From a virus (Duplodnaviria > Heunggongvirae > Uroviricota > Caudoviricetes), in the IMG/VR virus record IMGVR_UViG_3300001199_000001, positions 133,404 to 197,403 of that record: 64,000 bases of DNA; one strand, written 5' to 3'. The notes under the pieces are model-generated. The model saw nothing but the letters and a program-made list of their open reading frames with translations, made no database searches and had not been told where the DNA came from. The translations under genes were made by a program, and so were the position numbers. Every line of letters begins with the position of its first letter. The first letter of the stretch is position 1. Below, one piece after another: positions 13,747 to 34,134 of this stretch.

Positions 13747-14112
13747 CTAATTGAGCTTGCTGCTGGGCTTATTAGTGGGTTTCCAAGAGGTCTTCTCGGA
13801 GATCACGCCGTGTTTCGCGCCACGCAGGGTCTTAATCAGATTTACGTGGTCCACGCCCGAAGCCAGCACTAGCCAGACAACAAAAGCTGTCAGGGATAGT
13901 AGTAGCTGCCAGATCGCGTAGAAGAGGAACGCCAATGCGAACCAAGTTCCAGCGACGGCGTGCAGCGTAGTCAGGGGATACCCCAGCAGGCCCGAGACGC
14001 CGGTTACTACCCAAACCAGGGCAGTAGCCAGTAGAGCCAAGATGTTGATGGTCGGGAACTCTCGCGCCCTTAGCAGCAACGTCTCTAGGATTTGGTCTTT
14101 TTGGTCGCTCAT
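13747..14112 (-). CDS. Small membrane protein
   Basis: Two to three long hydrophobic segments and a basic C-terminal tail. Confidence 0.65.
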   Translation of the reverse strand: MSDQKDQILETLLLRAREFPTINILALLATALVWVVTGVSGLLGYPLTTLHAVAGTWFALAFLFYAIWQLLLSLTAFVVWLVLASGVDHVNLIKTLRGAKHGVISEKTSWKPTNKPSSKLN

Positions 14113-14174
14113 CGTCCTTACGTGTTACCCTAGCTGAATTGGCGTGTCAAGCTAATTGACACGGATAAAGTGAC

Positions 14175-16472: not shown

Positions 16473-17079
16473 GGGTGTATCGGTTGCCTTTGCGGCTATT
16501 CTCGACGCTCGTCATAATTTGAAGGTTGTTATGTACGTGCAGTCCCGAGACATCCTCGCCAAGAATTGGTACGATGTGATCGACGACATGTAGGACCCCG
16601 GTCGCCTCGGTGAGATGGCGGGCTTCAGTGTAAAACTGCTCAATCTCTACCCAGTCAGCCCATCTAGGCACTTGGGAGGACATGCGTTCACGCCGGGCAG
16701 CCGCTTCACGGCGACTCGCCTCTTTACCTTTGTCCGATCTCTTATAGTTCCTTGATATTTCACGAACACGGGGTTTGTGCTCTTGATGCCATTGTTTAAC
16801 GGCGTTAGCACGTTGCCGGGCGACCTCTTTAACCTTAGCTGGATTCGCTTTGCGCCATTCTTTAGCTTTCTGACTAAGTAACTCTGCATAATCGCGCTGG
16901 TACTTTTCTCGCCAAGCCTTGTCCTTTTCAGGGTTCCTTTTGCGCAAAAGGTTAGTGCATTCAGCGCAGCGTCCTGAAGTCGTGAAGCGTTCTGCGACAT
17001 GACCCTGCGGACAAGGCCTGCCAGTGAAATAACGAACATTACCGTTGGCCTTGGCCTCCGCTCGCTCTCCTTTTTTCAT
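16462..17079 (-). CDS. HNH homing endonuclease
   Basis: YFTGRPCPQGH..CAEC N-terminus; VDHIVPI..VSGLHVHNNLQ..ENSRKGN; more AT-rich than its neighbours. Confidence 0.9.
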   Translation of the reverse strand: MKKGERAEAKANGNVRYFTGRPCPQGHVAERFTTSGRCAECTNLLRKRNPEKDKAWREKYQRDYAELLSQKAKEWRKANPAKVKEVARQRANAVKQWHQEHKPRVREISRNYKRSDKGKEASRREAAARRERMSSQVPRWADWVEIEQFYTEARHLTEATGVLHVVDHIVPILGEDVSGLHVHNNLQIMTSVENSRKGNRYTHDI

Positions 17080-17882
17080 GGAAGAGCCTTATACAAAGCA
17101 TTTAAGATGACTCCCGCTACTTGCGGGCAGATGGCGTTGCCGTATCCTTTGAGTATGTCCATCCGGTTGGGTACCCCATCACCCAGCGGACAAATTCCGG
17201 CTGCAAAACGGCGCCTTTTTTGGTCTGGTCCGACCACGACGGAGGCGTCAGCCCAAGGCGAATCAATTCCCGGCACAGCCACTGCAACCCCACTTGACCC
17301 TTCGTTCCGTTGGGTCGCTGTCCGGTTATCGTTGTCCCTGCCGGTAAAGTCTTGCTCCCCGTGGCGTCGCTCACCAATGGTGTTGGCAAGAGCGACCATC
17401 CAAACCCGCTCTCGTCTATGGGGCGCGTTGACGGCGAAAGCACCAATACGGTACGGCCTTGTGGTGTAGTCTGCTTTTTCCAGATCATCGAGCACTCGGT
17501 CGAGGCCCAGATCGATGATCCCTCGGACGTTCTCACCAAGGAATCGGTCAGGGCGTCGAGCACGGATGAGGCGGTAGAGTTCTGGCCAGAGGGCTCGTTC
17601 ATCTTCTTCTGCTTTCTGATCCCCTGCTTCCGAGAACGGTTGGCATGGGAATCCCCCGGTCCATAAGGGTAGATCGTCAGGCCAGCCTGCCATACGAGCA
17701 GCGAGCCCAAACCCGCCGATACCTGCAAACATGTGAACCTGATCGTATCCTTTAAGGTCGTCCGGGTGGACTTTCTGGATAGGACGGTCGTCCACATCGC
17801 CCGGCGGAATGCGACCGGCGGCGATGAGATTTTTCAGCCACTCGCCGCAGTAGGGATCAAAATCGTTGTAGTAGGCAGGCAT
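17076..17882 (-). CDS. C5-cytosine DNA methyltransferase, alpha-type polypeptide lacking motif IX
   Basis: FAGIGG (I), GFPCQPFS (IV), ENV (VI), HRRERVW (VIII) and LKGYGNAI (X). Confidence 0.92.
   Translation of the reverse strand: MPAYYNDFDPYCGEWLKNLIAAGRIPPGDVDDRPIQKVHPDDLKGYDQVHMFAGIGGFGLAARMAGWPDDLPLWTGGFPCQPFSEAGDQKAEEDERALWPELYRLIRARRPDRFLGENVRGIIDLGLDRVLDDLEKADYTTRPYRIGAFAVNAPHRRERVWMVALANTIGERRHGEQDFTGRDNDNRTATQRNEGSSGVAVAVPGIDSPWADASVVVGPDQKRRRFAAGICPLGDGVPNRMDILKGYGNAICPQVAGVILNALYKALP
17117..17797 (-). CDS. Probable beta polypeptide of the C5 methyltransferase in an overlapping frame
   Basis: 226-codon same-strand alternative frame with LLPTPLVSD and LQPEFVRWVMGYPTGWT (motif IX-like); start uncertain. 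Confidence 0.72.
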   Translation of the reverse strand: MWTTVLSRKSTRTTLKDTIRFTCLQVSAGLGSLLVWQAGLTIYPYGPGDSHANRSRKQGIRKQKKMNEPSGQNSTASSVLDALTDSLVRTSEGSSIWASTECSMIWKKQTTPQGRTVLVLSPSTRPIDESGFGWSLLPTPLVSDATGSKTLPAGTTITGQRPNGTKGQVGLQWLCRELIRLGLTPPSWSDQTKKGAVLQPEFVRWVMGYPTGWTYSKDTATPSARK

Positions 17883-17912
17883 AGTTTTAAGTGACAGATG
17901 TTAGCGAGACTG

Positions 17913-18635
17913 TCAATGCATGTCAGCCATATCAAACTCGTCCTCATCGTCGTTATCTAACGAAACCTCGCCGGGCCACACCGAATCGGCCAAGCGAACT
18001 AGCTCGACGGCGATTGCGCGCAAGTTCACAACGTGGCTGACCCACGGCGAGAACTCGGCAGGCCATCGCGGCGGCGACGAGTAAAAATAGATGGCTTTGC
18101 CCCGGTAGAGGTTGCAGGCGAACTCGCTGACGCCTCGCCTGGAGAGTGCATAGCTGTTATCGCCGAGCATCGGCGTTTCGCTCTCGGTGATAAAACCGAT
18201 GCCGATCCGGATGCGGTCGCTATCGTCGTCATACATCAACCAGACGACTCGACCGTCGAGCATGGGTACGATCACCGGCTCCCAAGCGTTCGGGTTCCCC
18301 CAGACTTCGTCGTGGACGTTGATCACAGCCGCGCAGAGAGCGTCGCTGGTGGCTTTGTCCAGACGGTACTCCTTCGCCTCCGGGTCGGACGTGAAAAGCT
18401 CTGAGAGCTTCCCCAGTGTCAGCGTGACGCCATTGTCGCGGGCTTTGTCGACCCACTCGTGTACGCTGAACTGATGCACGTTAGCCGTCGAGATGTGGGC
18501 CTGCTGCAAACCGTTCATCGAACGGACGCCTAGACCGATCTGGATGTGATTGGTGTTCGGGATGTGCAAGGCATAGACAAAACCACCTCGCGGATTTGTT
18601 TGAACATGTACGCGTTCGATAATCAGATCGTCCAT
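17913..18635 (-). CDS. Hypothetical protein
   Basis: 240-aa ORF in the operon run. Confidence 0.7.
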   Translation of the reverse strand: MDDLIIERVHVQTNPRGGFVYALHIPNTNHIQIGLGVRSMNGLQQAHISTANVHQFSVHEWVDKARDNGVTLTLGKLSELFTSDPEAKEYRLDKATSDALCAAVINVHDEVWGNPNAWEPVIVPMLDGRVVWLMYDDDSDRIRIGIGFITESETPMLGDNSYALSRRGVSEFACNLYRGKAIYFYSSPPRWPAEFSPWVSHVVNLRAIAVELVRLADSVWPGEVSLDNDDEDEFDMADMH

Positions 18636-18877
18636 CTACTGTAAAACTCCACTAGCAGCCGTAGCTCATCTAAAGTTGCGTCGTTTTTGATCCTATTGGC
18701 ACGGAAACTGATAACTATTACATTCCCAGGGACGTAGCCTAGATCGGGCAATACTCGATCTAGTGTCGCGCTACCATCTGTGCGTTTTCCGTTCCCGATC
18801 TTGAGAGGTATCCCAAGAAATTCTGACCTAGCTTTTACGGTATCGCAATTACTGCATTCTCTTTTTAGATCGTCCAT
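18623..18877 (-). CDS. Short or truncated HNH-like endonuclease
   Basis: ATLDRVLPDLGYVPGNVIVISFRANRIKNDATLDEL, a phage endonuclease motif; AT-rich. Confidence 0.65.
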   Translation of the reverse strand: MDDLKRECSNCDTVKARSEFLGIPLKIGNGKRTDGSATLDRVLPDLGYVPGNVIVISFRANRIKNDATLDELRLLVEFYSRWTI

Positions 18878-20511
18878 CGACCGTTACTTAACGTTACTAT
18901 TGTACGTCGACCATTCTGATATTGTATTACATGGGACCACGACCATGAACTCATTCCGACGTTGTAGCCAAGGTCTAATGAAGAAGTCGTTCCCGCAACA
19001 TAAGCGCCATCAAGGATGGCAGCGGAGTGCGTGTGGCCCGAGGTTGTCTTAGACCCGCCCCGCACAAAAGCATGGATACTGCCGCGAGCACCGTTTGCGC
19101 CGTGGTGACCGTGGTTGGCGTGCTCGACGCCACCAATGACAAGGCTGTCGTCCTGTTTGAGGAAATTGACTTTGTCACAACGCCATTCCTTGAACATTTC
19201 GCACAGGGTGTGGACGTAGATGTCAAAATCATCGTCACCGCGTGCCATGGCCTCATAGCAGGCCGACTGGCTCTTGAGGAAGAACAGAGCGTTGATCGGA
19301 TCGCTCCGATAATCAGCCGTCTTCAGCCACTTCAAGAAGGCACCGTGGTGGTTTGAATCGACGACGTGGACTTGCCCAGGCGTGCGCTCCTGCATGAAAT
19401 GCAGGAACATAGCGTCCTGACGAAGTTCTTCTTCGACGGTCTCGACGCCTTGGACGTGCATCTTGAACCGGCTGTGCGGATCGTGAATTTCGTGGTGGCT
19501 GCGACTACGGAAATCCGAAACGTCATGTAGGAAAAGATGACTCGGTTTAAGCCTTTCGAGCATCGACGTGCCATTATATTCTGACTCCCAGACGTATCCG
19601 GTGTTAGGATCGCGCTCACCTGTCGGCCAAACACCAAAGGTCGCCTTAGAGACTTCCGGGTCGATCTTGACGACGTGGATATCACCGGGCGTCAGGCATT
19701 CGATGGCGTGATTTTCGCTAACCTCGCCATTCGACACATAGCGATCAAGGTCATAGAACGAGCCGTCATCATGTTCGCCCATAAGGTGGCGGACAAAGAA
19801 GGTTTCATCGTCATCGATCTCGACGATGATGGCGGCTATGGAGTGGTGGAAGGACGCTCGCAGGCCCGCGCGCTTCGGCACATAGTTCGATCTGGTGATC
19901 GTGCCGGTCGTGTAGTTGATCTTGGTCGGTTTATATTTCTGCGTCGGGATCGACGATAGTTGTACTTTAGCATGAGGAAAGACGCCGCTACGATGCCGGG
20001 TGTAGGTCTCGAATCCGGTTAGCGGTGTGACGGCTGTGGGTAGAATATTTATCTCAGCGCAAAAATCCAACCCTTCACATAGGCGCATGCGCTCATTGCG
20101 TAGGTACGGTTGGACGCGCTCATGGAAGAGCGGCGCTTTGTTTTTGGCGTGATCTTCGAACAGGCTCTTATTGTACGTGTAACCGGCAATGATGATCTCG
20201 CAAGGGGCGTCCTGCCCCAGCCAGTCAGCATAGGCCTCCAGGTTCGTCAGAAAGTTATCGTGTACACGGGTTCCGTCCTGAGCCGAGGAGAGGATATAAC
20301 GGCGACGACCGGTACCCTGCTGGCCCAAAAGCACCGGCTCCGGTCTGGGGCGATGCTGGAATGGATCGGCCCGAAGCTTATGTAGGCGGTCTTGCAAGGT
20401 GGTGCGCGGGATGCCGTACTTACGCGCGAAAGCGCGCTGTCCCCCGGCCTTACGGACCTCAGCCAGCAGTTCATGCGTGTCAACGGCGTCGAGATTGAAG
20501 GTGTCGCTCAT
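18865..20511 (-). CDS. HTH plus calcineurin-like metallophosphoesterase protein
   Basis: N-terminal QRAFARKYGIPRTTLQDRL; GDIH, LHD, DSNHH, HGHHG and GHTHS motifs. Confidence 0.75.
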   Translation of the reverse strand: MSDTFNLDAVDTHELLAEVRKAGGQRAFARKYGIPRTTLQDRLHKLRADPFQHRPRPEPVLLGQQGTGRRRYILSSAQDGTRVHDNFLTNLEAYADWLGQDAPCEIIIAGYTYNKSLFEDHAKNKAPLFHERVQPYLRNERMRLCEGLDFCAEINILPTAVTPLTGFETYTRHRSGVFPHAKVQLSSIPTQKYKPTKINYTTGTITRSNYVPKRAGLRASFHHSIAAIIVEIDDDETFFVRHLMGEHDDGSFYDLDRYVSNGEVSENHAIECLTPGDIHVVKIDPEVSKATFGVWPTGERDPNTGYVWESEYNGTSMLERLKPSHLFLHDVSDFRSRSHHEIHDPHSRFKMHVQGVETVEEELRQDAMFLHFMQERTPGQVHVVDSNHHGAFLKWLKTADYRSDPINALFFLKSQSACYEAMARGDDDFDIYVHTLCEMFKEWRCDKVNFLKQDDSLVIGGVEHANHGHHGANGARGSIHAFVRGGSKTTSGHTHSAAILDGAYVAGTTSSLDLGYNVGMSSWSWSHVIQYQNGRRTIVTLSNGRWTI

Positions 20512-20945
20512 TGGGATTCGCCGCGTAGGTTGGCCTTGCCGTTGGTCTTAAGGGCGGTGAAGAAATCCACGACCCAGCTATCGCCCGCGAAGACGGCTTC
20601 TTGAAAGAACATCGCGATCACGGTGAGTTCGTTCCACGAGGCACCTTGGGCAGGCGTTCCATCGGGATTGATCCGGTACCAGTTGACGGTGTTGTTTTCG
20701 AGAAAGGCGCGGAAGTGAGGACGTTCGTATCTCATGCTCAATCAGCCCTTACGATAATGTCGTTCTTCTTGAGCTTCAGGCCGAAGAAATGTTTATGGTA
20801 AAGCTTAACGAACTTCCGGGCCGACCGCTTGGTTTTGGCGTGGAAGCGAAGCGCGTGCGGCATGCCTCTCAGCCGCGCCGGATGGATGTTGAGATACGAC
20901 TCCGGCTTCAGCGAGCCAGTGAAGTTGGGCTCATGATAAGGTGAC

Positions 20946-21569
20946 TCATCCCACATAGATAAGCTCCGGCTTGAGGGCCATGGGCTTCGACCAATCCCAA
21001 TAATACCAGCTATAGTTAAAACGAGGGGCGCCAGACGTGCCTTCGATCCAGCGTGGGCGAAAACGCATTGTGATCTTGTAGCGGAAGGCCGGGTGATCGA
21101 AGAGGTCCGAACGTCCCTTGGCGGTATCCCACTCATGGCGGCAGAGCATGACGACGACGCCCTGCTCCGGCTCCACTAGCTCCAGCGCCTTGCGCGTGAA
21201 AGCTTCAGCGTTCTTGCCGTAAGGCGGGTTGGTCAGGATGAAATCGGGGCGAATGCCGTCCGGGCTGAACGCCGCAACATCGTCGATGGAGCAGTCCAGA
21301 AAATCCAAGAAACCGTCCGGCTGGAAGCCGTCATAAAGCGCAATGTCGGTCGAAATGAACGACTGGAAATGATCCTTCACGACATTAGAGATCGCCCCAT
21401 TACCGCAAGCGGGCTCCCAGCCGTGATAGCCAGCGAAGTCGTCGCCGAGGGCTGTCAGCAACGCTTCAGTGCATCGTGCGGGGGTGGGGTAATGATCCAG
21501 CGCTACACGTTCGTATTGGAACTGAGCAAGCATGGAAGGGTCTTTTTTCGGGGCATCGGATTTTTCCAT
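20946..21569 (-). CDS. Putative amino (N6-adenine-type) DNA methyltransferase
   Basis: DHYPTP, WEPACGNG, DFL and ILTNPPY. Confidence 0.85.
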   Translation of the reverse strand: MEKSDAPKKDPSMLAQFQYERVALDHYPTPARCTEALLTALGDDFAGYHGWEPACGNGAISNVVKDHFQSFISTDIALYDGFQPDGFLDFLDCSIDDVAAFSPDGIRPDFILTNPPYGKNAEAFTRKALELVEPEQGVVVMLCRHEWDTAKGRSDLFDHPAFRYKITMRFRPRWIEGTSGAPRFNYSWYYWDWSKPMALKPELIYVG

Positions 21570-21649
21570 GCCCGCAAGCTGTCACATTAAACTAAGGGCG
21601 TCAAGAAATCGCACATTCGATGTCAGCGAGGCTGACACGGGTGCCGAAC

Positions 21650-22057
21650 CTATCTGTCTGGTATGATCTCCGTGAGAGATTTTTGCTGCTGCTTGGGCGT
21701 CATCTTCAGAGATAACATCCACTGCGGGTACCTCCCCGCCGCGATGTGTCCGCGCCACCTCTCGGTTAAAATCGCCCGCCGCTCAAGTTTTTCTTCCAGG
21801 GTGCGCAGCGTCGAAGCGCTCGAATTGCAGCCCTTATGCGCCAAGACCAGATTATCCAACCTATTCGATCCGCCGTCCGCGCTGTTATGCAGATGCTCTA
21901 GTGTAGCGTACCACTTAGAGGGATTCTTCCCTAAAACGACGAATACCAACGGTAGGTCGCAGTACCAGCAGTTATCGCCGTCGCGCTCGCGTAACCTGTC
22001 TCGCTTACTACGGCGTTGTCTGCTTTGCATCTGTCTTGAAGGCATCCTGCTGGCCAT
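21650..22057 (-). CDS. HNH endonuclease
   Basis: RDGDNCWYC..ATLEHLHNSADGGSNRLDNLVLAHKGCN. Confidence 0.88.
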   Translation of the reverse strand: MASRMPSRQMQSRQRRSKRDRLRERDGDNCWYCDLPLVFVVLGKNPSKWYATLEHLHNSADGGSNRLDNLVLAHKGCNSSASTLRTLEEKLERRAILTERWRGHIAAGRYPQWMLSLKMTPKQQQKSLTEIIPDR

Positions 22058-22059
22058 CC

Positions 22060-22089
22060 AAAAAGGCGGGGGAGCGATCCCCCGCCTTT
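22060..22089 (-). terminator. Intrinsic terminator
   Basis: AAAAGGCGGGGG-AGCGAT-CCCCCGCCTTT. Confidence 0.75.
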
Positions 22090-22110
22090 GCTTAGTTTCC
22101 GGCTTAGTAG

Positions 22111-22506
22111 CTAGTCGTCGATCATCGCCATCAGTTCGTCGACTGACTTCGAACGCAGGTCGGTGTCCTGCTTCTCGGCGATGATCTCCAAGAGCTTCTG
22201 CTTCTGCGCCGCCTTGGCCTGCCGCGTCCGCGTCGCTTCGTTCTCGGCCATTCGCACATCGATGATGTACTTGACGATCTCGAACGCCAGTTGCTTGTCG
22301 GTGTCGACCCCAGCGGACGGGGTCACAAACGAGATGGTATCCTCGTTCCGCAGTTGGCGGTGTAGCGACCGCGCCACGTCATCCAGGCTCGTAGCCAGCG
22401 GCTTGGTGGTCGTCAGCGGCAGGTCCCACAGGTCTTCCACGGTCAGTTGACCCTTGGTCGTGTCGAAGCGCAGCTTGCGGCGTGAGGCTTGTTCAAAAAT
22501 TTCCAT
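22111..22506 (-). CDS. Conserved phage hypothetical protein
   Basis: FEQASRRKLRF..GQLTVEDLWDLPL motif recalled from large phages; paired with the upstream 679-aa gene. Confidence 0.8.
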   Translation of the reverse strand: MEIFEQASRRKLRFDTTKGQLTVEDLWDLPLTTTKPLATSLDDVARSLHRQLRNEDTISFVTPSAGVDTDKQLAFEIVKYIIDVRMAENEATRTRQAKAAQKQKLLEIIAEKQDTDLRSKSVDELMAMIDD

Positions 22507-22518
22507 TGCAGTTCTCCT

Positions 22519-24558
22519 TTAGAATACGATTTTGACGTTACGCGTGAAACTACCTTTGACGCGGGCGATCACGTCCGCTCGCTGCGTCGTCGAGAAGCCG
22601 AGGCCGCTCAATTGGTCGACCGACTCTTCTGTCCGCATCTTGGCGCCGACCATCTCAATGACCTTCCGGTGAGGCGTCAGGGCCTCACTGAGGAATTCAT
22701 TATAGAAGCCCCGCGCCGTGCCGTCGTTCTGACAGCCGTCGAGCATGAAGAAGTAGTGCTGGTTGCCGACGCCGCGATCTCCCCAGTAGTTGGGCGATCT
22801 CATCAGAACGTTGACCTTGGCGAAGTCGCCGGTCTTGACGTTCCAGACCGTCTTCGACGACTCCGTAGACGGCAGCGAGTCAAGAAACTCGATGCCTCCC
22901 GCATGCGTATATCGAAACTTGGCGACCGGCACGTTCTTAGTTGAGCCGACCGCCTTATCGTAGACGAAGCGACGAACCGTCCCAAGATAATCGATCTCCA
23001 CCTCGAAACCGACGTTGGTCGATTCACGCTTGTGGTAGTTGTTCACGAAAAGCTCGTAGACACCTTCGGGCATCTTGCGTCGAGATGTGTAGAAGATGTT
23101 CTCCACCGGCTCTCGCGTCGTCCCGCCGCCAGCGTTCATGTCTACGTCGAGCTTACCGCCGGAGCTACGATCCTCACGGTGGCCGAAATAGATGTGCTCA
23201 CCGTTCGGCTGGCGCATATGCAGGTCGAGGTCATCGTAGTTGAACCACGCTAGGCGGCAGCAGAGGTCGCCCGTGACATTGCCGCCAGCACGCTTAACCC
23301 GCTCTTTGATCGAGTCGGCGACATCGCCGTTGTAGGACCAACTGAAGTTGTTATCCCACTTGAACAGCTTGCCTCCGGTCGGGTCGACGGGCGCGATCAG
23401 GCTCACGAGGTTCGAGATGTGTCGGTTCTCGACCATGATCTCAACCGACTGCGCACGAGGAACGATCTCGCTCATGAACTTGTCGACAGGAATTTCATCG
23501 ACGCGGTCAAGGCTCGGCGTGCGTCCCACCTTGGTTTCCGAGGCCAGCACATCGAATACATCACCCTCGATCATCGACTTGCGGGCCGTGCGGTCCGCAA
23601 AGATGATGTCGTTGACGTTGATATCAGCGAGACGCGCATAACGGCGATCCAGCGCTGATATGAGTCCCAGCGATTCGAGTGTCGCCTTGGCGTTCTCGAT
23701 CATCTTCTTCGAGACCAGGGCTGTTGGACGCTTATAGTTCGCGGGCGCCATGACGGCGTCGAACTTGCGGACCGCCTGTTCGAGTTCGAGGCCTTCCGAT
23801 AAATCGATCAGCAGCGTGCCGATGGAAGTGTTACGCACCTTGGCCACGGACGCGGGAACCGTATTGATCTTCGACCAGACGAAGGCGCTCTTCTCGGCAG
23901 TCGTCGCCTGACGCTGTTCGAGCTTGCGGAACTCGGCCTTCAGCTTGCGGAACGAATCGACCACGAACGTGTGCTCAGTCCCACGATAAAGGGCGTTCTG
24001 CGCGATAAGGTCGAGAACGGTGTCGACGGCTTCGTCCGTGATCTCCGTCAAGCTGCGCAGCATGACATCGTAAAGCGCACGCGCCTCCGAGCGCTTCGGG
24101 CCGATATCGACGCCCCGGCAGACGAAGTCGTTCGGAATCTGGACGTGGAAATGGTTCCACGTCTGCACCTTATCGAGGACTTGCTCGAAGCTCTTTTCCG
24201 TACCCGCCGACCGTTCGGTGTGCAGGAAGATGTTGTCGATGGCCTTATCCTTGACAAGCTTTGCCATAGCATCGGCCACGACCTGATAGGCGGGCTCGCC
24301 GGGAATTTCCACATCCCAGATGCTGACAACCTTCCCGTTCACAACGGCGACAGCATTGCCGACGGCACGGATGAACTGACGGCAGCAGGAACAATCGTGC
24401 TCAGTCCGCACGCGGACAAGCGGGTTCGTCCCCGGCGGGAAGCTGTTGATATAGGTGTTCCACAGGTCATCGCCTGTGACATCGGCGCGGAACAACGGCT
24501 GCTTACGCAGTGTTTCGAATTGCCCGCCAACGGCTGTTTTGAACTGGGAGAAGTTCAT
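22519..24558 (-). CDS. Conserved large-phage protein with YfaP/DUF2135-like DLDLH domain
   Basis: HDCSCC, LAWFNYDDLDLH, LDVDMN, PVENI and RGFYNEFL. Confidence 0.75.
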   Translation of the reverse strand: MNFSQFKTAVGGQFETLRKQPLFRADVTGDDLWNTYINSFPPGTNPLVRVRTEHDCSCCRQFIRAVGNAVAVVNGKVVSIWDVEIPGEPAYQVVADAMAKLVKDKAIDNIFLHTERSAGTEKSFEQVLDKVQTWNHFHVQIPNDFVCRGVDIGPKRSEARALYDVMLRSLTEITDEAVDTVLDLIAQNALYRGTEHTFVVDSFRKLKAEFRKLEQRQATTAEKSAFVWSKINTVPASVAKVRNTSIGTLLIDLSEGLELEQAVRKFDAVMAPANYKRPTALVSKKMIENAKATLESLGLISALDRRYARLADINVNDIIFADRTARKSMIEGDVFDVLASETKVGRTPSLDRVDEIPVDKFMSEIVPRAQSVEIMVENRHISNLVSLIAPVDPTGGKLFKWDNNFSWSYNGDVADSIKERVKRAGGNVTGDLCCRLAWFNYDDLDLHMRQPNGEHIYFGHREDRSSGGKLDVDMNAGGGTTREPVENIFYTSRRKMPEGVYELFVNNYHKRESTNVGFEVEIDYLGTVRRFVYDKAVGSTKNVPVAKFRYTHAGGIEFLDSLPSTESSKTVWNVKTGDFAKVNVLMRSPNYWGDRGVGNQHYFFMLDGCQNDGTARGFYNEFLSEALTPHRKVIEMVGAKMRTEESVDQLSGLGFSTTQRADVIARVKGSFTRNVKIVF

Positions 24559-24620
24559 CGGTGCTCCTATCTTGCACCGACATTATTAGCACAGGCTTTC
24601 GTTGTCAACACATTTCAACG

Positions 24621-24726
24621 ATGGCCGGATATGTCCGGATAATGTCCGGCTAATTCAAAAAACTTAATAAATTCAATAGAGACATGCCGTGAAGGATGTC
24701 CAGCAAATGTCCGGATATGGCCGGAT
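24621..24726. repeat. Six ATG(G/T)CCGGAT-type direct repeats in two triads around an AT-rich core
   Basis: Copies at 24621, 24631, 24642, 24696, 24707 and 24717; AT-rich stretch at 24651-24680. Confidence 0.8.
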
Positions 24727-24734
24727 ACTCGAAG

Positions 24735-24768
24735 AAAAACCCGCCAGACCGAAGTCGGGCGGGTTTTC
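24735..24768 (-). terminator. Terminator ending the minus-strand RNA transcript
   Basis: AAAAACCCGCC-AGAC-CGAA-GTC-GGGCGGGTTTT. Confidence 0.75.
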
Positions 24769-24773
24769 TCGCA

Positions 24774-24883
24774 TGGAGCGAGAGGTTGGATTCACACCAA
24801 CGTCCTCGTAAGCGAAACATTACCGCAAATGAATGCGGAAGAGGCGTCGCCGCCAGAGTGCCCTTAACCTAGACCACTCTCGC
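24774..24883 (-). ncRNA. tRNA-like RNA with ~55-nt expanded anticodon arm
   Basis: Acceptor GCGAGAG/CTCTCGC plus T-CCA; D arm GTCT-AGGTTAA-GGGC; T arm GTTGG-TGTGAAT-CCAAC. Confidence 0.75.
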
Positions 24884-24884
24884 A

Positions 24885-25740
24885 GAATGCTTGCTTGACA
24901 GGCTGAGACTACACCTATCGACAACCGTACTTCCGAAGCTTATACTGCCGGTGCGACCCTACAGCTTACCTCGACATCCACCCGGTGGGCTTTAACCCCT
25001 CACCAAGTCTACGGTCAACGCCGCGATTTATAAAGCGCTTGCATCGGCGCTGTCGTCACAGACTACTCGGCATATCACTTCCCGCCTACTTGACGCAGTT
25101 CGAGGGAGCTACCCTCTACGAGTTGTTCCTTACCGACACCGTCAGGTTTGCGACCCTTCGATGACTGGATTACCCGAAGGCTCCAGCGTTAGGCGTCTTT
25201 CGTCTATGACCGAACTCGGACTTTGCTTTTAGCGTATCGGGTTTCGAACCCGAGACAACCACCTGTCAAGGGTGATGCTCTACCAACTGAGCTATGCGCA
25301 AACCCACCATGACGAGCCGAGTTCCGTTGTTCCAATCCCTTTTGGGGACCAGAATGCAACCCGCCACATGCCTTTCACCCCGCTAAGGACTACTCGACTG
25401 TCGTCAAGGACTTCGGTTCCTTACCTTTAGGGCCTTTTTGGACCCATGGGCATATTACCGCCTCCCTCTGGACTACGCCGCGCTCTTGGCCGCTAAGCCT
25501 TAAACTGCGCATCACAGCATTACCTGTGACACTCGGCGTCTCAAGACATTGACCTATGGGCTCTGGATCGTTTGGACAGGAGCTTCAGGGTTCCACCCCC
25601 TCTACGATACGAGCCGCTTATCGCGTCCACCCGCATCCGCCGCTTTCGCGGTCTCCTACGATCTTCGAGCTTGTCTCATACACCTCGCAGCGTATAAGCA
25701 GGAGGTCTCCCTCCTCGGTCTGTCCGGCTTGCTATTTCTC
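24885..25740 (-). ncRNA. Large structured RNA, GOLLD-like
   Basis: ~850 nt with no credible ORF, many GNRA/UUCG-type hairpins, an embedded tRNA, possible 5'/3' end pairing (GACAG/CTGTC), and a phage tRNA-cluster context. The family assignment is from recalled architecture, not from a covariance search. Confidence 0.65.
25230..25301 (-). tRNA. Degenerate tRNA embedded in the large RNA (loop CTTGACA; no CCA)
   Basis: GCTC-AGTTGGTA-GAGC, TCACC-CTTGACA-GGTGG and TCGGG-TTCGAAA-CCCGA; acceptor TTGCGCA/TACGCTA has two mismatches. Confidence 0.75.
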
Positions 25741-25973
25741 CAAGATGGCCACGGGGGTCACCAGAGAGAAGGTCGGGATTGGCGTGGGGGCCTCACCCTG
25801 TCAGGGAAACCGGATCGCTCCGATGTCCCCGCCGCAAGCAGTGATGAGATACTGCCTGAGCCCGCTGGAAAGTGCAACAGAAAAATGTGTTTACGATGAA
25901 ATTTTTTCATCCACATGTTATCCACATAAACATTGTTGTTGACGACGTGCACACGATGAAATAGTGCGTAGGA

Positions 25974-26150
25974 TGCGTCGAAGTCCTGTCGGTCGGCCGA
26001 TTTGGCGGGGCTTCCTTACGCGGATGATGTAAGCCGGGGTGCGGGGTTGAACCCGTACGGAGGTGGATCGGGCGCCGCGAGAGTCTAACCGTCAGGCGCC
26101 TGCCGGGGACGACCGACAAATAAGCCTACGACCGATATGGGGACGCACCA
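25974..26150 (+). ncRNA. Candidate structured RNA ending in ACCA
   Basis: GCGTC/GACGC+ACCA closing stem; TGTCGGTCG/CGACCGACA 9-bp stem; TTGACG -35 at 25939. Confidence 0.45.
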
Positions 26151-26562: not shown

Positions 26563-27000
26563 AATCGTCGTAATTCGGTTTACGGCGTTGGCGGCAAGAC
26601 GGGGCTTCGATGCCCCCGCCTCCACCACGAACACCTGATCTGCTAACCTTCGGGGACGCAGACCAGACGAAAGCCATCTGTCTGAAATCTGCGGATCGCC
26701 TCAGGCCTCCGGAGTTGAGAAGATAGCTGGATAGCAGGTGTTCTTGATGGGGGCGATTTGGTTTCGATTGGCGCTGACGGATGTGGGACGCGACGGTGGG
26801 TGACCTCCGCCTTGTGCGGTCGTGAGGATCGGAAATATGGAAGTCCTCGGACGTTCCTGATCTGTCCAAGCGCGGCAAGAATTGGGTCAGTCTTGACAAC
26901 TGTCAACGACAACACCGCTCCGGTTATGGAGACCCTGCTCGCTGCTTAATCGCAGTTAGCACGGGCTCAGGGGACGGCCTTGGAACAGAAGGTCCCCACT
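26563..27000 (+). ncRNA. ssrA: Circularly permuted two-piece tmRNA
   Basis: Acceptor piece with T arm ends CGCCTCCACCA (26627). Coding piece starts GGGGGCG (26749), giving G3-U70. Tag frame 26902-26949 reads VNDNTAPVMETLLAA*. Alphaproteobacterial-type 3' hairpin with AACAGAA. Confidence 0.93.
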
Positions 27001-27668: not shown

Positions 27669-27689
27669 ATTAGGTTCGTACGTCGGAGA

Positions 27690-28201
27690 GAGCGTGCGGC
27701 CTTAGGAGTTAGTCAGCGACGGCTGCTAACTCCGCATAAATTTACGGGCAGGTCGGGGCGAAAGTCAAGGCAGGCCCTCCAAAACGGCTCGCCTGCCATG
27801 TGTAGGAAGAGTATTCGGGATCGTTTCGGCAAGACCGGGACGGTCCCAGCAATATCCCCGCGAGGGAACGAACGTCGGAAGTAGCGGACGTGACAAGCTG
27901 GAGAGGACAGCACTTCAGGGGCCAGATGATGGGTTGGCCTTTGGTGAACGCCGACCCCGAGGCGTGACGGCGAGAGAGAACGCACAAATAGATAAAGGCG
28001 CGGGAGATTTGTTACCCCGGCTCATCTATTTAGCGTCAGTGAGGTGAGAACGCCCTCCTCATACACCGCCTAGGCGGTAAAGTAGGCTCAGGCCGAAGAG
28101 ATGCAGGATTCCATGCCGTTCGCGGGTGGATGAAAACCGGGGACCCTGCCGCTGACGATTTCATAAGCAAAAACCGCCGCCACCTTGGCGGCGGTACGCT
28201 C
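27690..28201 (+). ncRNA. Candidate ~510-nt structured RNA (ROOL size class, family unconfirmed)
   Basis: Closing stem GAGCGTGC/GTACGCTC, several long internal helices, no credible ORF, directly after the tRNA. Confidence 0.5.
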
Positions 28202-28366: not shown

Positions 28367-29839
28367 TCATTCAGCGATGCCGCACATCAATGGATTGTCG
28401 ATGTGACCCTCGTAGACGTGGACCGGCTGTCCCCAAAGACGCCGGACATGTTTCATCATCGGCGTTGGATCGGCGATCATACGGTTCTTATGTGGCGTCC
28501 ACCTGATCCACAGGCGCCGTTGGTCGTCCACCCGGAACACCTCCAGCTTCGGCACGTAGGCTTCGCGTTCGTGGCTATCGGCCAAGGTCTCGCGGATGTT
28601 GTGATAGCCCTGCTCGTTTTGGATCGCCTTGACCTGATATTTGTCGTCTTCCCGGTCATCGAACACGTGGAAGAAACCAAAGTCGCGTATGACCTTTGGC
28701 GATAGGAACTGCCGGATCATACTTTCGTCGCGGTAATTGGCCACGATATCCTTGATCACCTCACGCCCGTTGACGCCGGTAAGATCAGGGAACCACTGTT
28801 TATCCTCATCGGTCGGATTTGCGCAGATGCGCTCGACATCCCGAAGAATCTCGAAGCCAAGCTTGTACGGGTTGATGCCGCTGTATCGCTTGTCGTTCCA
28901 GCGGGGCTGGAAGAGAACGTTGGCGTGCAGCATCAACCACTCTAGTTGAGAGCCGTCGGTGATCAGGCCCTTCTCATGAAGACGGTTCATGATCGTGTAG
29001 TGAGTCCACGAGGCAAAGCCCTCGTTGGCGACCTTGGTCTGGCCTTGCGGATAAAAATACTGGGCGACCTTCCGGACGATACGAATTAACTCACGCTGCC
29101 ACGGCTTTAGCGACGGCGAGTGTTTCTCACAGAAATAGAGGATGTTTTCCTCCGGGCTCTCCGGGAAGAATTTATCGTCTTCCGGGGTCTCCTCCTCATC
29201 GGGCAAAATTCGGTAAAGCTCGTCGACCCGCGATTGCAGGTACCTCTCGCGTTCCTTCTGACGCTCGCGCTCTTTAGCCAGGGAAATCTTCGATGGACGC
29301 TTATAGCGATTGATGCCGTAGTTCATCAGCGCATGGCAGGAGTCTAGGAACTGCTCGACCTCGTCGTGTCCGTGCTTGAACTCGCAGTCGGCGACATAAT
29401 CCTTAGCGAAGATCATATAGTCGACGATACTCTCAGCGTCGGTCCAAGTTTTGAATAGGTAGTTGCATTTGAAGAACGAATTATGCCCGACCCCAGCGTG
29501 CGCCATGACCAGCCCTTGGGTGGTCATCGTGTTTTCTTCCATGAGATAGTTCACACACGGAGAAGAATTGATGACCAATTCATAGGCGAGTCCACTCGCC
29601 CCTGACTTGTATGATTGATGCTGCGCGGCGAAGCTCTTACCGAAGCTCCAGTGATTATAATAGATGGGCAGGCCGATGCTCGAATAAGCATCCAGCATCT
29701 GGTCGCTGGTGATAATTTCGAACTGGTTTCGATAAATGTCGAAACCAAGCTCTTCGTCGTTGATGGTTTGAATGGCGGCCCAAGTCCGATTGATCCGGTC
29801 GAAGGTCCACTCACTGTCCGTCCACAGGGGCTCGGTCAT
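28367..29839 (-). CDS. ycgB: SpoVR/YcgB family protein
   Basis: YNHWSFGK, GLAYELVINS, AHAGVGHNSFFK and QTKVANEGFASWTHY. Confidence 0.95.
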   Translation of the reverse strand: MTEPLWTDSEWTFDRINRTWAAIQTINDEELGFDIYRNQFEIITSDQMLDAYSSIGLPIYYNHWSFGKSFAAQHQSYKSGASGLAYELVINSSPCVNYLMEENTMTTQGLVMAHAGVGHNSFFKCNYLFKTWTDAESIVDYMIFAKDYVADCEFKHGHDEVEQFLDSCHALMNYGINRYKRPSKISLAKERERQKERERYLQSRVDELYRILPDEEETPEDDKFFPESPEENILYFCEKHSPSLKPWQRELIRIVRKVAQYFYPQGQTKVANEGFASWTHYTIMNRLHEKGLITDGSQLEWLMLHANVLFQPRWNDKRYSGINPYKLGFEILRDVERICANPTDEDKQWFPDLTGVNGREVIKDIVANYRDESMIRQFLSPKVIRDFGFFHVFDDREDDKYQVKAIQNEQGYHNIRETLADSHEREAYVPKLEVFRVDDQRRLWIRWTPHKNRMIADPTPMMKHVRRLWGQPVHVYEGHIDNPLMCGIAE

Positions 29840-31158
29840 TCCCTATCCTTACTGAAAAGCTTACGGAAGACGCTGATGACCTCTTTGTCGTCATCGATCT
29901 GCGCCATATCCATGTTCCGGTGTTTGAGGTTGGCGATCTTGAGCACCTTCCACAGACCCTCATCGTACATCAGCGATCCCCAGAAGGAGTGCTTCTTGTA
30001 GGGGTGCGGGACCTCGATATAGTTGAAGTGCTGGCACATCGGCAGGAGCCTATCGAGCGCGCTAAGCACGACCGGGTTATCACTGTCGGAGTTATCACCG
30101 TCACTGACCTGCGCGAGATAAATATTCCAATCATCGACCGGGTAACGCGCTGAGATCACGCTTTGGACGACTTCGTAGGCCGTAGAGACGACCGTCCCGC
30201 CGCTCTCCCGTGAGTTAAAGAAGGCATCCTCATCGCATTCGATGGCCGTGTCGTGGTGCCGAACGAAAACCACGTCGATGTTGCGATACTGACGGCGGAG
30301 GAAAAGACTGAGCAGTAGGAAAAATTTCTTGGCGATGGTTTTCTCGCGGTTACCCATCGAACCCGATACGTCCATCACGCAGATCATCACTGCCTGGACG
30401 GAGGGGCGGGGGTGTTTGACGAAATTGTTGAACCGCAGATCGACATCGTCGAGGAAGGTGACGGCGTTCGCGCGCCGCCGCAAAACTGAAATCTGCTCTT
30501 CGATTTCAGGGATCGACGCCCTTATGCTGTCGTGAGTTTCCGGGTGCAGTCCCAGATCAAGGATTTCCTGATATTGGGCTAGCTGCTCTTCCAATTCCTT
30601 GATCTTGGCCATCTTCGGCGACCGCAAGGCGATCCTTCGGCCGAGGCCCGCGATAGCCGTGCGTTCAACGTTGAGATTGGCGGGGATGCCGACACTGGTG
30701 TGTCCGGCGCGAACGGTGTCGTATTTGACCACATTTTTCTCTGACTGCTTGACCATGTCCGGCAGTTCGAGGTCTTCAAAAATGATGTTCAGATACTCGT
30801 CGTAGGACAAGGCAAAGTCGAAGTCGTCTTCATCTGGACCGTCTGAGGAACCGCCGCGTCCCATGCCGTTAGGGTCGCTCTCAGGCTTATAGATGCTGTC
30901 GCCCGGCACGTAGTCCTTGTTGCCCGGCAGGACATAATCGTATTCACCGAACTCGCGGTCGTGATGAAATTGCGGCTCGTCGATCCCGTCATGCGGAATG
31001 GAGATATCCGCATCGGTCGTGTCGTTGATGGACCGCCCGGCGATCTTACGCCGGGCGGCATCCTGAATAGACTTCTTAGCCCGGCCGACAAACCGCTGAC
31101 GGTTGTTAAGCGACTTTCCTTGCGGGTTTTTGCGTCGGTCGATGATGATACTGGACAA
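29836..31158 (-). CDS. yeaH: YeaH/YhbH (DUF444) vWA protein
   Basis: IIDRRKNPQGKS, PGNKDY, MDVSGSM, RESGGTVVS and SDGDN. Confidence 0.95.
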   Translation of the reverse strand: MSSIIIDRRKNPQGKSLNNRQRFVGRAKKSIQDAARRKIAGRSINDTTDADISIPHDGIDEPQFHHDREFGEYDYVLPGNKDYVPGDSIYKPESDPNGMGRGGSSDGPDEDDFDFALSYDEYLNIIFEDLELPDMVKQSEKNVVKYDTVRAGHTSVGIPANLNVERTAIAGLGRRIALRSPKMAKIKELEEQLAQYQEILDLGLHPETHDSIRASIPEIEEQISVLRRRANAVTFLDDVDLRFNNFVKHPRPSVQAVMICVMDVSGSMGNREKTIAKKFFLLLSLFLRRQYRNIDVVFVRHHDTAIECDEDAFFNSRESGGTVVSTAYEVVQSVISARYPVDDWNIYLAQVSDGDNSDSDNPVVLSALDRLLPMCQHFNYIEVPHPYKKHSFWGSLMYDEGLWKVLKIANLKHRNMDMAQIDDDKEVISVFRKLFSKDRE

Positions 31159-31350
31159 CGCGTTATCCCTTTAAGATAGGCGGTTGATTATGCTGCTCAT
31201 AGTTCGAAGGGTATCTTGTGCTCGATCTTGAGCGGCAGGTTCTTCACGTCGGAGCATTCGATGAGGGCGCAGTCGCCGGGCATAACCTCAGCGAGAACGC
31301 GGCGACTGCGAGTCCACACCACCACCATCTCATCGCCTAAGTTCTCAAGC

Positions 31351-31782
31351 TTAAGCAGCAACCGCCACCTGTCTTTCGATCTCAGCCACTAGCTGCGGCT
31401 CCGGCGGCTGCCATGACGGCGGCTTCATGACCTTGCCATCTTCTTTGAAGCGCGGCTTGCCGTCTTCCCAAAGCTTGGCCATGTTAGCGCCTTGGACGAT
31501 ATCCCAGAGATTCCCAGGCTGTACGCCCATGACCACCAGACCGCCCATTGCGAAGTAGAGGATGTCCAAGAAGGCGTCGGCTTGGTCGACGATAGTTGTC
31601 GCCTCGCCGAGTTCACGGACCTCTTCCTTGATCCATTCCGACCGCCGCGTGACCTCGAATTCATTCATCAAGGTCGGCCCGTCGGGAGCCGGATGGTTAA
31701 ACGCGAGGTGGAAGTCGCGGACTTCGTGCCACTGTTTATTCACGCAGTCCGCCTTTCGGATTTCCGCTGCTCGTTTTTCCAC
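31351..31782 (-). CDS. MazG-like / PRA-PH family NTP pyrophosphohydrolase
   Basis: VRDFHLAF, EEVREL, DAFLDILY, VQGANMAK and DGKVMKP. Confidence 0.88.
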   Translation of the reverse strand: MEKRAAEIRKADCVNKQWHEVRDFHLAFNHPAPDGPTLMNEFEVTRRSEWIKEEVRELGEATTIVDQADAFLDILYFAMGGLVVMGVQPGNLWDIVQGANMAKLWEDGKPRFKEDGKVMKPPSWQPPEPQLVAEIERQVAVAA

Positions 31783-32192
31783 TCTTCGAATGTATTGTAT
31801 TGCACACCGTAAGCTGCATTAACTACAACCCCGTTCGAATGCCTGACATCAAAGCTGTTAGAGTCAGCGGCATCATTAATCCCATTTGCTGTAATGGGCA
31901 TTAAAGTTCCAGACACATTAACGGCCCACCCAATAACCGGTATTGAATGAATGTAGTAACCTTCAGATAAATTTTCGTCAGGCCAGTATGATATTAAGTC
32001 AGTATCGGGCGAAGCGGCGAACGTCGAAACTATAGGACTAATGAAATCGTTCAATTCATATGAACTGACCTCTATGCTTCGTTCGCCCTTAAGATATACA
32101 TAATGCCTGTCATTATCTAGTTTCTTGGATATCTCTGTTACCCTACTGATTGGGTAATAGGCTCCATGAATATCTTTAAGAAATGCTGTCAT
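31740..32192 (-). CDS. Hypothetical protein, AT-rich
   Basis: 150-aa ORF, visibly lower GC than its flanks. Confidence 0.7.
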   Translation of the reverse strand: MTAFLKDIHGAYYPISRVTEISKKLDNDRHYVYLKGERSIEVSSYELNDFISPIVSTFAASPDTDLISYWPDENLSEGYYIHSIPVIGWAVNVSGTLMPITANGINDAADSNSFDVRHSNGVVVNAAYGVQYNTFEEWKNEQRKSERRTA

Positions 32193-32193
32193 T

Positions 32194-34134
32194 TTATCCG
32201 GCCTTCCGAGTGCGTTGATACCATTCCACCACGCGCCGGACCTGACGGGGGGTGTAGCCCTTGGCGCACATCCGCTCGACGAAGTCCTTGTGCTTCTGTT
32301 CGGTCTCGCGGTCCTGCTTGGCGCCGAACGAGATCACCGGCAGAAGCTCTTCAACGGACGAGAACATCTTCTTCTCGATGACGCGCTTCAGTTTCTCGTA
32401 GGCGGTCCACTTGACGATATCGCCTTCACGGGCCTTCTTCCGCAGAACGAAGTTCACGACCTCATGGCGGAAGTCCTTTGGGTTGGCGATACCCGCTGCC
32501 TTTTCGATCTTCTCAAGCTCGTTATTGAGGAGTTCGCGGTTGAACAGGTTGCCGGTGTCAGGGTCCTTGAAGTCGATCTCTTGCATCCAGTGATCGGCGT
32601 ACTCAAGATAGCGGTCGAACAGGTTCTGGCCGAACTCATCGTACGCCTCAAGGTAGGCCGTCTGAATTTCGTTACCGATGAAGTCGCGGTACTCCGGAAC
32701 GAGGCGTTCCTTGATGTAATTCAGGTACTTAAGTTCGATCTCTTTCGGGAACTGCTCGCGGCGGATAGCGTCTTCGAGCACTAACATGATGTGAACCGGG
32801 TCCGTGGAGACCTCATCGCTATCGTAGTTGTATGCCTTCGAGAGGATTTTGAAGGCGAAGCGCGTCGAGATGCCCGACATACCTTCATCCATCCCGGCGT
32901 CGTCGCGATATTCCTGGACCGATTTGGCGCGGGGATCGGTTTCCTTGATGTTCTCGCCGTCGTAGACGCGCATCTTGGACCACTCATTCGAGTTCGGGTG
33001 ATCCTTGAGGCGGGAGAGAACGCTGAAGCGAGACAGCAGTCGAAGGGTCTCAGGCGCGATAGGAGCCTTCGCAAGGTCCGACGATTGCAGCATCTTTTCG
33101 TAGATGGATTGCTCTTCAGTGACCCGCAGGCAGTACGGAACCTTGACCACGCAGATGCGGTCGATGAAGGCTTCGTTGTTCTTGTTATTCTTGAACGTCT
33201 GCCATTCGGCTTCGTTCGAGTGCGCCAAGATCATGCCATTGAACGGGATAGCCGAGATCGCTTCGGTGCCGACGTAGTTGCCTTCTTGCGTGGCGGTCAG
33301 CAGCGGGTGGAGCACCTTGATCGGCGCCTTGAACATCTCGACAAATTCCATCAGGCCTTGGTTGGCCCGGCAGAGCGCGCCGGAGAAGGCGTAGGCGTCA
33401 GGATCGCTTTGCGAGAAGTGCTCCAGCTTGCGGATGTCGGTCTTGCCGACGAGGCAGGAGATATCTTGGTTATTCTCGTCGCCCGGCTCGGTCTTGGCGA
33501 TGCTGATTTGTTCGAGACGCGAGGGCCAGACCTTGGCGACGCGGAACTTGCGGATGTCGCCGCCGAAGCCCTTGAGGCGCTTGACCGCCCATGGCGACAG
33601 GATCGATGAGAGGTAACGACGCTCGATGCCGTAGCGCTCGCTTAGTTCGGTAGCGAATTTATCGGCAGGGAAGAGGCCGAGCGGGCTTTCGAACACCGGG
33701 CTCATCTCTTCGCCCGCGCATAGGACGTAGATGGGATAGGACTCCATCAATTCCTTCAGGCGTTCAGCGATGGAGGATTTACCGCCGCCAACCGGGCCGA
33801 GCAGATAGAGAATCTGCTTACGCTCTTCGAGGCCCTGCGCCGATTGACGGAAGTAGGCGACGATACGCTCGACGGTATCTTCCATGCCGTAAAAATTGGC
33901 GAAGGTCGGATAGATGCGGAGCGTCTTGTTCAGGTAGATACGCGACAGGCGCGGATCGGTCGAAGTATCGAGCTTAACCGGCTCGCCAATTGCCTTGACC
34001 ATCCGCTCCGGAGCGGAAGCATAAGCCATCGGATCAACTTTGCAGAGGTCTAGGTAATCTCCCAGGTCCATGTATTCGACTTGGGACTTTTCGTAGTTGT
34101 CTCGAAAGAGATCAAACAGCGACGGTGCGGGCAT
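32194..34134 (-). CDS. yeaG: PrkA/YeaG AAA+ ATPase / Ser kinase family
   Basis: GPVGGGKS, PGDENNQDIS, ANQGLMEFVEMFK, AHSNE and GISTRF. Confidence 0.96.
   Translation of the reverse strand: MPAPSLFDLFRDNYEKSQVEYMDLGDYLDLCKVDPMAYASAPERMVKAIGEPVKLDTSTDPRLSRIYLNKTLRIYPTFANFYGMEDTVERIVAYFRQSAQGLEERKQILYLLGPVGGGKSSIAERLKELMESYPIYVLCAGEEMSPVFESPLGLFPADKFATELSERYGIERRYLSSILSPWAVKRLKGFGGDIRKFRVAKVWPSRLEQISIAKTEPGDENNQDISCLVGKTDIRKLEHFSQSDPDAYAFSGALCRANQGLMEFVEMFKAPIKVLHPLLTATQEGNYVGTEAISAIPFNGMILAHSNEAEWQTFKNNKNNEAFIDRICVVKVPYCLRVTEEQSIYEKMLQSSDLAKAPIAPETLRLLSRFSVLSRLKDHPNSNEWSKMRVYDGENIKETDPRAKSVQEYRDDAGMDEGMSGISTRFAFKILSKAYNYDSDEVSTDPVHIMLVLEDAIRREQFPKEIELKYLNYIKERLVPEYRDFIGNEIQTAYLEAYDEFGQNLFDRYLEYADHWMQEIDFKDPDTGNLFNRELLNNELEKIEKAAGIANPKDFRHEVVNFVLRKKAREGDIVKWTAYEKLKRVIEKKMFSSVEELLPVISFGAKQDRETEQKHKDFVERMCAKGYTPRQVRRVVEWYQRTRKAG

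Follow-up and report, generated by a model that had tools for sequence, protein, structure and literature searches.

The window analysed here is a 64,000-nt stretch from the 279-kb genome of a jumbo phage that is related to phiCbK. The DNA polymerase of this phage is 57.7% identical to that of the phiCbK-group Caulobacter phages and, judged from this identity together with a permuted tmRNA, its nearest cultured kin infect Alphaproteobacteria. On its minus strand the window carries a GOLLD RNA with an embedded tRNA-like module. The following features were delimited, with coordinates referring to the window.

24897 to 25745, minus strand: GOLLD RNA of about 850 nt with approximate ends, based on the Rfam 3' part, the conserved 5' start and inter-domain covariation.
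25368 to 25745, minus strand: divergent 5' domain outside the Rfam model, weakly similar to the 5' domains of the phiCbK group.
24900 to 25367, minus strand: 3' domain with a variable linker, corresponding to positions 1-416 of RF02032 (163.6 bits; covariation).
25849 to 25877, minus strand: weak candidate promoter TTGCAC-17-CAGTAT, spotted by eye; the conserved 5' end follows about 100 nt downstream.
25229 to 25301, minus strand: tRNA-like module (ARAGORN, Rfam) in which the D arm, T arm and anticodon stem are intact, the variable arm is short and CCA is missing.
25264 to 25270, minus strand: anticodon loop CUUGACA with nominal anticodon UGA at 25268-25266 and C37, from sequence and parse.
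25303 to 25702, minus strand: long-range 5-bp helix, 25702-25698 with 25303-25307, from inter-domain covariation.
25212 to 25324, minus strand: 8-bp pseudoknot helix GAACUCGG/CCGAGUUC, 25324-25317 with 25219-25212 (covariation z 14-28).
25148 to 25226, minus strand: GCAAAG motif adjoining the module on its 3' side and GCAA loop 25152-25148, linked by the covarying pair C25225-G25151.
25018 to 25196, minus strand: long-range helix ACGCC 25196-25192 with GGCGU 25022-25018 (covariation z 14-27).
25107 to 25111, minus strand: self-complementary loop UAGCU; 82 of 87 homologues, the window among them, have a GC or CG palindrome here.
26566 to 26949, plus strand: permuted (two-piece) tmRNA with tag VNDNTAPVMETLLAA, adjoining GOLLD.
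27592: tRNA-Met, near GOLLD.

The sequence-only reading had proposed a GOLLD RNA at this site, either a member from an alphaproteobacterial phage or a new relative of the family. The Rfam GOLLD model (RF02032) matched positions 25367-24900 on the minus strand over its full length (model positions 1-416 of 416) with 163.6 bits (E 4.6e-44), above the gathering score of 150 bits. By this match the RNA is a member of the known GOLLD family, located in a phiCbK-related phage, and not a new relative; it is the sole GOLLD of the 278,859-nt virus record. Conservation on the 5' side begins near 25740 and the Rfam model stops at 24900; the RNA is therefore about 850 nt long, and the ends first proposed are correct to about 10 nt. 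The region 24885-25740 had been described as free of ORFs, and indeed no credible gene was found in it: the longest stop-free runs are 85 aa on the plus and 64 aa on the minus strand, and the ORFs present are short and overlapping. When its minus strand was compared with 20 dinucleotide shuffles, it folded more strongly than every one of them (z = -3.5). For the hairpin loops noted earlier, the density of strict GNRA and UUCG tetraloops taken by itself lies within chance: the region has four, and 79 of 300 shuffles reach four. Complementary ends, also proposed, had to be given up: the window ends form 5 bp, mean end complementarity in a set of 83 homologues was alike for own (6.7) and mismatched ends (6.4), and the termini showed no covariation. 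The candidate promoter at 25849-25877 was absent from the output of a consensus promoter scan.

GOLLD sits here in a phage and near tRNA genes, with the tRNA-Met and the tmRNA close by. Compared with other GOLLDs, the window copy is set apart by lying about 70 kb from the main tRNA array (about 36 genes) and beside a permuted tmRNA. On its 3' side follow a methylase gene and an A1-like 'DNA transfer' gene. Using blastn, we found GOLLD in 18 Caulobacter phage records, and homologues also occur in Mesorhizobium phage Cp1R7A-A1 and Sinorhizobium phage Phosso. In the five Caulobacter phage records that were opened (phiCbK, Karma, Swift, Magneto and BL57), the island is syntenic, with GOLLD divergent from the permuted tmRNA and the methylase and A1-like genes 3' of it as in the window. 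GOLLD scores 165-171 bits in each of the five and is unannotated; the inner tRNA alone is annotated, as Gly or Lys. In phiCbK (JX100813.1) the RNA, of some 865 nt, lies on the minus strand at about 102,285-103,150. The permuted tmRNA likewise has unannotated counterparts in Caulobacter phages, e.g. phiCbK, Rogue, Colossus and PW. Among five Dolichocephalovirinae genomes, only phiCbK was positive for GOLLD, which is missing in Colossus, Rogue, BL10 and PW while the tmRNA is kept. The window GOLLD is about 72% identical to those of the phiCbK group in the matched pieces and carries the same type of module, whereas its 5' domain is much diverged, its anticodon loop reads CUUGACA instead of CGUCCUA, CAUCCUA or CUCUUAA, and extra small elements lie on either side. 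A near relative was not found: one search returned four loci without a GOLLD match, a further one a phiCbK-group contig only and another a single distant homologue, and GOLLD was present at 0 of the 58 loci of the neighbouring 679-aa protein. Two observations concern the Caulobacter phage records themselves. In BL57 (locus L003, 2617-2823), the annotated hypothetical CDS BL57_146c, which overlaps the 5' end of GOLLD, is probably spurious. In phiCbK (locus L001, about 3570-3850), the GOLLD terminator is followed, before tRNA-Cys, by about 170 nt of GC-rich non-coding sequence that is nearly invariant in five Caulobacter phages and has no significant Rfam match.

The scaffold shows clear covariation among homologues. 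Mutual information was calculated over 87 3' domains, and the top 140 pairs contain 104 pairing-type pairs, 95 of which are canonical in the window 3' domain. In the 5' domain the window shows canonical pairing at 33 of 67 covarying pairs, in an alignment that is poor and has many gaps; similarity to the 5' domains of the phiCbK group is weak (best E 7.7e-5). The helix GAACUCGG/CCGAGUUC, which the sequence-only reading had taken to enclose the tRNA, is real and covaries across the 87 homologues, but it forms a pseudoknot and not a simple closing stem; by our own assignment of the stem number it is probably P14. Within the long-range 5-bp helix, four of the five pairs (25702-25699 with 25303-25306) covary with z 7-17 and are 98-99% canonical in 83 homologues. 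This helix connects the 5' domain with the 3' domain at the 5' side of the tRNA module, so that a conserved pairing element of the scaffold holds the module on either side. The C25225-G25151 pair is CG in 82 and GC in 5 of 87 homologues, and we consider the GCAAAG/GCAA-loop contact likely to be the L20-J13/15 inter-chain bridge B7 of Kretsch et al.; the UAGCU loop is likely their kissing loop L21a of bridge B8. Both bridge-like elements are present in the window sequence, and their numbering follows the accessible text of that paper, not its structure figure. As in GOLLD RF02032 generally, the window copy thus combines a full-length model match, a conserved 3' and a divergent 5' domain and a phage-encoded RNA of about 850 nt, and it retains the covarying long-range pairs and the palindromic loop, while the cage is known from other members only. 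One difference lies in the second loop of the P21-like region, which is GUCAA in the window and commonly UCGCAA.

The internal tRNA cloverleaf noted earlier is called by both ARAGORN and Rfam at 25301-25229. With class-I tRNAs and tRNA-Ser(UGA) the module shares the cloverleaf, the D and T loops and the tertiary pair 15-48 (G25287-C25254), which covaries (z 18); D arm, T arm and this pair point to an L-shaped core. It differs from them in being tethered at both ends and in lacking a long variable arm, a CCA end, an intact acceptor and a canonical loop. The acceptor stem has mismatches at 2-71 and 6-67 instead of 7 bp, AAAG follows in place of CCA, the variable loop is 5 nt long (UUGUC), and in the anticodon loop U33 is kept while C37 replaces a purine. 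CCA can be added after transcription in some bacteria; the stem of the window module is broken regardless. SerRS requires a long variable arm, so that charging of a Ser anticodon without such an arm is not expected. A separate, complete long-arm tRNA-Ser(UGA) with CCA is encoded elsewhere in the phage genome. The insert, read from its sequence, is not an ordinary tRNA: it has the shape of one and likely cannot be charged. We also considered a recent copy from the phage's own tRNA array and rejected it, since the best match there was 74.5% over 55 nt and the best free tRNA reached 0.73. As a side observation, the window loop holds UUGACA, which is found as the Val(GAC) loop motif in the tRNA-Val of this genome and is displaced here by one position, and a slip of one base aligns the phiCbK loop (L001 3137-3143) with that of Karma; slippage may, speculatively, be a route out of the canonical loop form.

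These features bear on the proposal that the module represents a tRNA in storage, to be excised, CCA-tailed, charged and used in translation. Such 'inhibited storage' of a GOLLD-embedded tRNA is put forward for a Mycolicibacterium GOLLD in the accessible part of a review (PMC12990946). For the window module, the two acceptor mismatches, the absent CCA, C37 and the Ser anticodon without a long arm all argue against it, as does the complete tRNA-Ser(UGA) elsewhere in the genome, and for the embedded pseudo-tRNA of M. aubagnense no expression was detected according to the accessible text of PMC6582537.

We then compared embedded modules across the family. A search pattern combining the T arm with the conserved GCAAAG motif gave at least 120 viral loci, and among those listed 94 matched the 3'-core profile; in prokaryote genomes the same pattern gave 38 matches in 68 loci, and a 3'-end pattern gave 27 in 120. 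From 157 full-start core matches, 103 unique modules passed the parser, duplicates, short loci and unparsable modules being excluded. By design, this sample is enriched for tRNA-bearing GOLLDs, and both pattern and parser demanded the T-loop motif and at least four anticodon-stem pairs; conservation of the T loop and anticodon stem therefore arises partly by construction and is not independent evidence. For comparison, 258 free class-I tRNAs were run through the identical parser, and 43 scaffold clusters were used for weighting. The chargeable end was mostly lost: NCCA was present in 9/103 embedded modules versus 232/258 free tRNAs and a full 7-bp acceptor in 14/103 versus 216/258. The outer acceptor pairs 1-72, 2-71 and 3-70 were formed in 51, 58 and 62% of embedded modules compared with 92, 97 and 96% of free tRNAs, and the inner pairs 4-7 in 85-97% of embedded modules. 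Cluster weighting left the picture unchanged (CCA 0.11, full acceptor 0.17). The tRNA body persisted, with U8 in 100 of 103 modules, the 15-48 pair in 86, and A14 and the D-loop GG retained, and the stems of the embedded modules covary (87 3' domains). Loop geometry was mostly retained as well (U33 in 94, purine 37 in 95 and A38 in 93 of the 103), while 31 anticodon types occurred. This suggests that, as far as sequence can tell, most tRNAs embedded in the surveyed subgroup of GOLLDs are mimics that lack the end needed for charging. The survey thereby narrows the storage hypothesis, for which the modules with CCA or a full acceptor stem still speak and which we regard as highly improbable; it also implies that some annotated phage tRNA genes are probably not tRNAs, among them the tRNA-Gly of phiCbK and the tRNA-Lys of Karma.

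Drift of the acceptor end and of the anticodon could also be read as decay, the module being a structural relic or filler, i.e. an old tRNA insertion kept as a compact stable fold that binds nothing. Many GOLLDs do without it: among 21 GOLLDs reached via 3'-end patterns, nine had a module and 12 had none that could be seen (L053, counted among these 12, does carry a variant module), which makes the module dispensable for the family. The absence of GOLLD from four of the five Dolichocephalovirinae genomes fits this reading as well. However, U8, A14, the D-loop GG, the 15-48 pair and the loop geometry persist over 43 scaffold clusters long after the loss of CCA, and the nearest neighbours of the modules are other embedded modules (median 0.83) and not free tRNAs (0.71). 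We consider a mere relic distinctly unlikely.

Scaffolds that are 93-99.7% alike can carry modules as low as 60-83% alike. Of seven independent pairs whose flanks are 93% alike or more (overall divergence 3.9%), six differ in the anticodon; across the seven, 25-44% of the sites in the module stems are changed, yet pairing is retained. The pair L163/L212 illustrates this pattern with identities of 0.99, 0.61 and 0.94 upstream of, in and downstream of the module; L219/L223 shows the opposite (0.85, 1.00 and 0.76), and in 17 pairs modules are 92-100% alike on scaffolds that are 73-87% alike. Some of the discordant pairs come from metagenome assemblies, in which chimeras are possible. In addition, an 850-nt contig of RNA run X13 tracks homologue L034 (1412-2250) with 33 other letters outside the module, while 70 module letters of L034 are replaced by 77 others, and run X11 contains loose ends matching this replacement. 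Together, the discordant pairs and the X13 contig imply that swaps occur. The module also had the lowest mean identity and the widest spread when compared with scaffold windows. Nevertheless, the rank correlation between module and scaffold identity was 0.24 and thus inside the range of the scaffold windows (0.04-0.43; 223 pairs, 43 sequences), so that swapping beyond that of the rest of the RNA is not supported.

Another reading is that the module acts as a sequence-specific decoy for host anticodon nucleases, an abundant multivalent bait that would absorb tRNA-cutting defence enzymes and whose anticodon arm would be exchanged in an arms race. The GOLLDs of phiCbK and Magneto differ by three substitutions outside the loop in 881 nt, and their 7-nt loops (CGUCCUA and CUCUUAA) differ at five letters, equivalent to one substitution and a one-base slip. 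NUU anticodons occur in 37/44 modules of the largest clade; AriB cuts tRNAs Lys(UUU), Thr(UGU) and Asn(GUU), and competition by viral tRNAs is raised as a possibility in the accessible text of PMC12409363, while that of PMC10264068 proposes that phage tRNA loops evolve against such nucleases. The cluster-weighted NUU share is 0.22 against 30/258 free tRNAs; as the excess stems mainly from one clade, a general Lys/Asn-specific decoy is weakened. Moreover, with C37 in the window and G33 and U37 in phiCbK, these two loops imitate no host tRNA well, the linker is directed into the cage according to the accessible text of Kretsch et al. (PMC12286853), and preferential swapping was not supported. 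All in all we judge the decoy unlikely. A bolder version, in which GOLLD cages would be anti-defence particles displaying 12-14 tethered tRNA mimics as a cassette swapped between phages against tRNA-targeting nucleases, appears quite doubtful to us. Were it true, phiCbK with its non-canonical loop and Karma, Swift and Magneto with a canonical Lys loop would be natural alleles.

Contigs from RNA libraries cover the GOLLD span of L034, although such contigs cannot show level, strand or ends. In run X1, contig depth is 13,000-25,000 for the contigs listed inside the L034 GOLLD versus about 600 in long flanking contigs, a depth that cannot rank genes. Runs X5, X8, X11 and X13 have no cover outside the GOLLD span, the stretch through which they were selected. 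A piece from run X16 (2173-2310) extends about 50 nt beyond the predicted start of the L034 GOLLD, which argues against a sharp 5' end. The X13 contig bridges the module but does not prove a single molecule, and with that proviso it speaks against the module being a processing signal at which RNase P or another tRNA-processing enzyme splits the GOLLD halves or opens the cage. The conserved elbow read by RNase P and the position of the module close to where the 5' and 3' domains meet would suit such a signal; on the other hand, the acceptor/T helix is cut down to about 9-10 bp in most members, and processing gives no need to keep the geometry of the anticodon loop. This makes processing very unlikely in our view.

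Our own interpretation, held tentatively and with slightly less than even confidence, is that GOLLD is a cage-forming scaffold showing a tethered, tRNA-shaped handle without CCA to host tRNA-binding machinery. GOLLD would be transcribed abundantly late in infection and, carrying over the published structures of other members, would assemble into a cage with the linker inside. The module would stay attached, neither charged nor decoded, and 12-14 copies per cage would bind and hold ribosomes or proteins that recognise the tRNA body; the anticodon could change through recombination, since no codon would be read. We favour the handle: the modules retain their shape and the geometry of the loop, but neither the features for charging nor a fixed codon identity. 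It agrees with the Rfam match, with the retention of covarying long-range pairs, with the loss of CCA and outer acceptor pairs, with the freedom of the anticodon, with the conserved pairing that flanks the module and with the differing modules of some near-identical scaffolds, and also with ribosome pull-downs with GOLLD, which Kretsch et al. (PMC12286853) cite in the accessible part of their paper. Against it stand the covariation of the module, which could be inherited from real tRNAs, the nine of 103 modules that retain CCA, the T loop and anticodon stem imposed by the search, the 12 of 21 GOLLDs without a module, and the lack of support for preferential swapping.

The GOLLD family and tRNAs embedded in it are already known. 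To our knowledge, GOLLD has no known function despite high-resolution structures of its cage. Degenerate embedded tRNAs may already have been described by Morgado et al. in 2020. In published structures, other members assemble into cages of 12 to 14 copies that enclose the linker (env-38, 14-mer; S. agalactiae, 12-mer), and the accessible text of Kretsch et al. (bioRxiv 10.1101/2024.12.08.627333; PMC12286853) states that tRNAs are sometimes located in the linker, which points inward. The window module resembles the tRNAs embedded in J13/15 (Mycolicibacterium tRNA-Phe; the M. aubagnense pseudo-tRNA; Kretsch Fig. 4c) in linker position and orientation. That literature, in the parts consulted, treats embedded tRNAs as stored or exposed, whereas most modules of the surveyed set lack a chargeable end, their anticodon is free, and modules can differ between nearly identical scaffolds. 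PMC12191101 does not mention GOLLD, and we found no papers on GOLLD in Caulobacter phages or on module exchange in a search that covered subscription papers and bioRxiv supplements thinly. To what was known, the present analysis adds the unannotated, syntenic GOLLD in phiCbK and close isolates. The host of phiCbK, a laboratory phage, is harmless and genetically tractable, making deletion, module-swap and pull-down tests of GOLLD function straightforward; the phiCbK group offers natural loop alleles on 99%-identical backgrounds along with relatives that have no GOLLD at that site, and RNA-seq of phiCbK infection exists (PMC10688885 and PMC13478754, by their accessible text).

Several small elements surround GOLLD in the window. 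Directly after it, at 24773-24883 (minus strand), lies a tRNA-like element whose 7-bp acceptor ends in UCCA. Its arms resemble D and T arms, and its middle, enlarged to about 60 nt, contains an inner hairpin that bears UUCAUU; ARAGORN called the element with the intron option only. Between the candidate promoter and the GOLLD start, about 100 nt (25746-25845, minus strand) can form a long imperfect stem ending in GCCA, with a fold that is not significant (z -0.3). On the opposite strand, an ORF-free element (25970-26130, plus strand) follows TTGACG-17-TAGTGC and has the paired ends GTCGGTCG/CGACCGAC (z -1.0; no Rfam match). None of these three elements had a homologue in the collected loci, and the upstream and downstream ones also had none in phages. 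Further on, a stretch of about 530 nt (27670-28200, plus strand) is strongly folded (z -3.65) and ends in a terminator-like hairpin. Its segment 28039-28108 is 91-93% identical to Rogue/BL10-group phages and gave a weak skipping-rope RNA match of 26.2 bits, below cut-off; the remainder had no match. Beyond it, at 28367-34134 (minus strand), the phage carries a gene trio encoding PrkA (YeaG), DUF444 (YeaH) and SpoVR, of which PrkA has few phage relatives (17 records).
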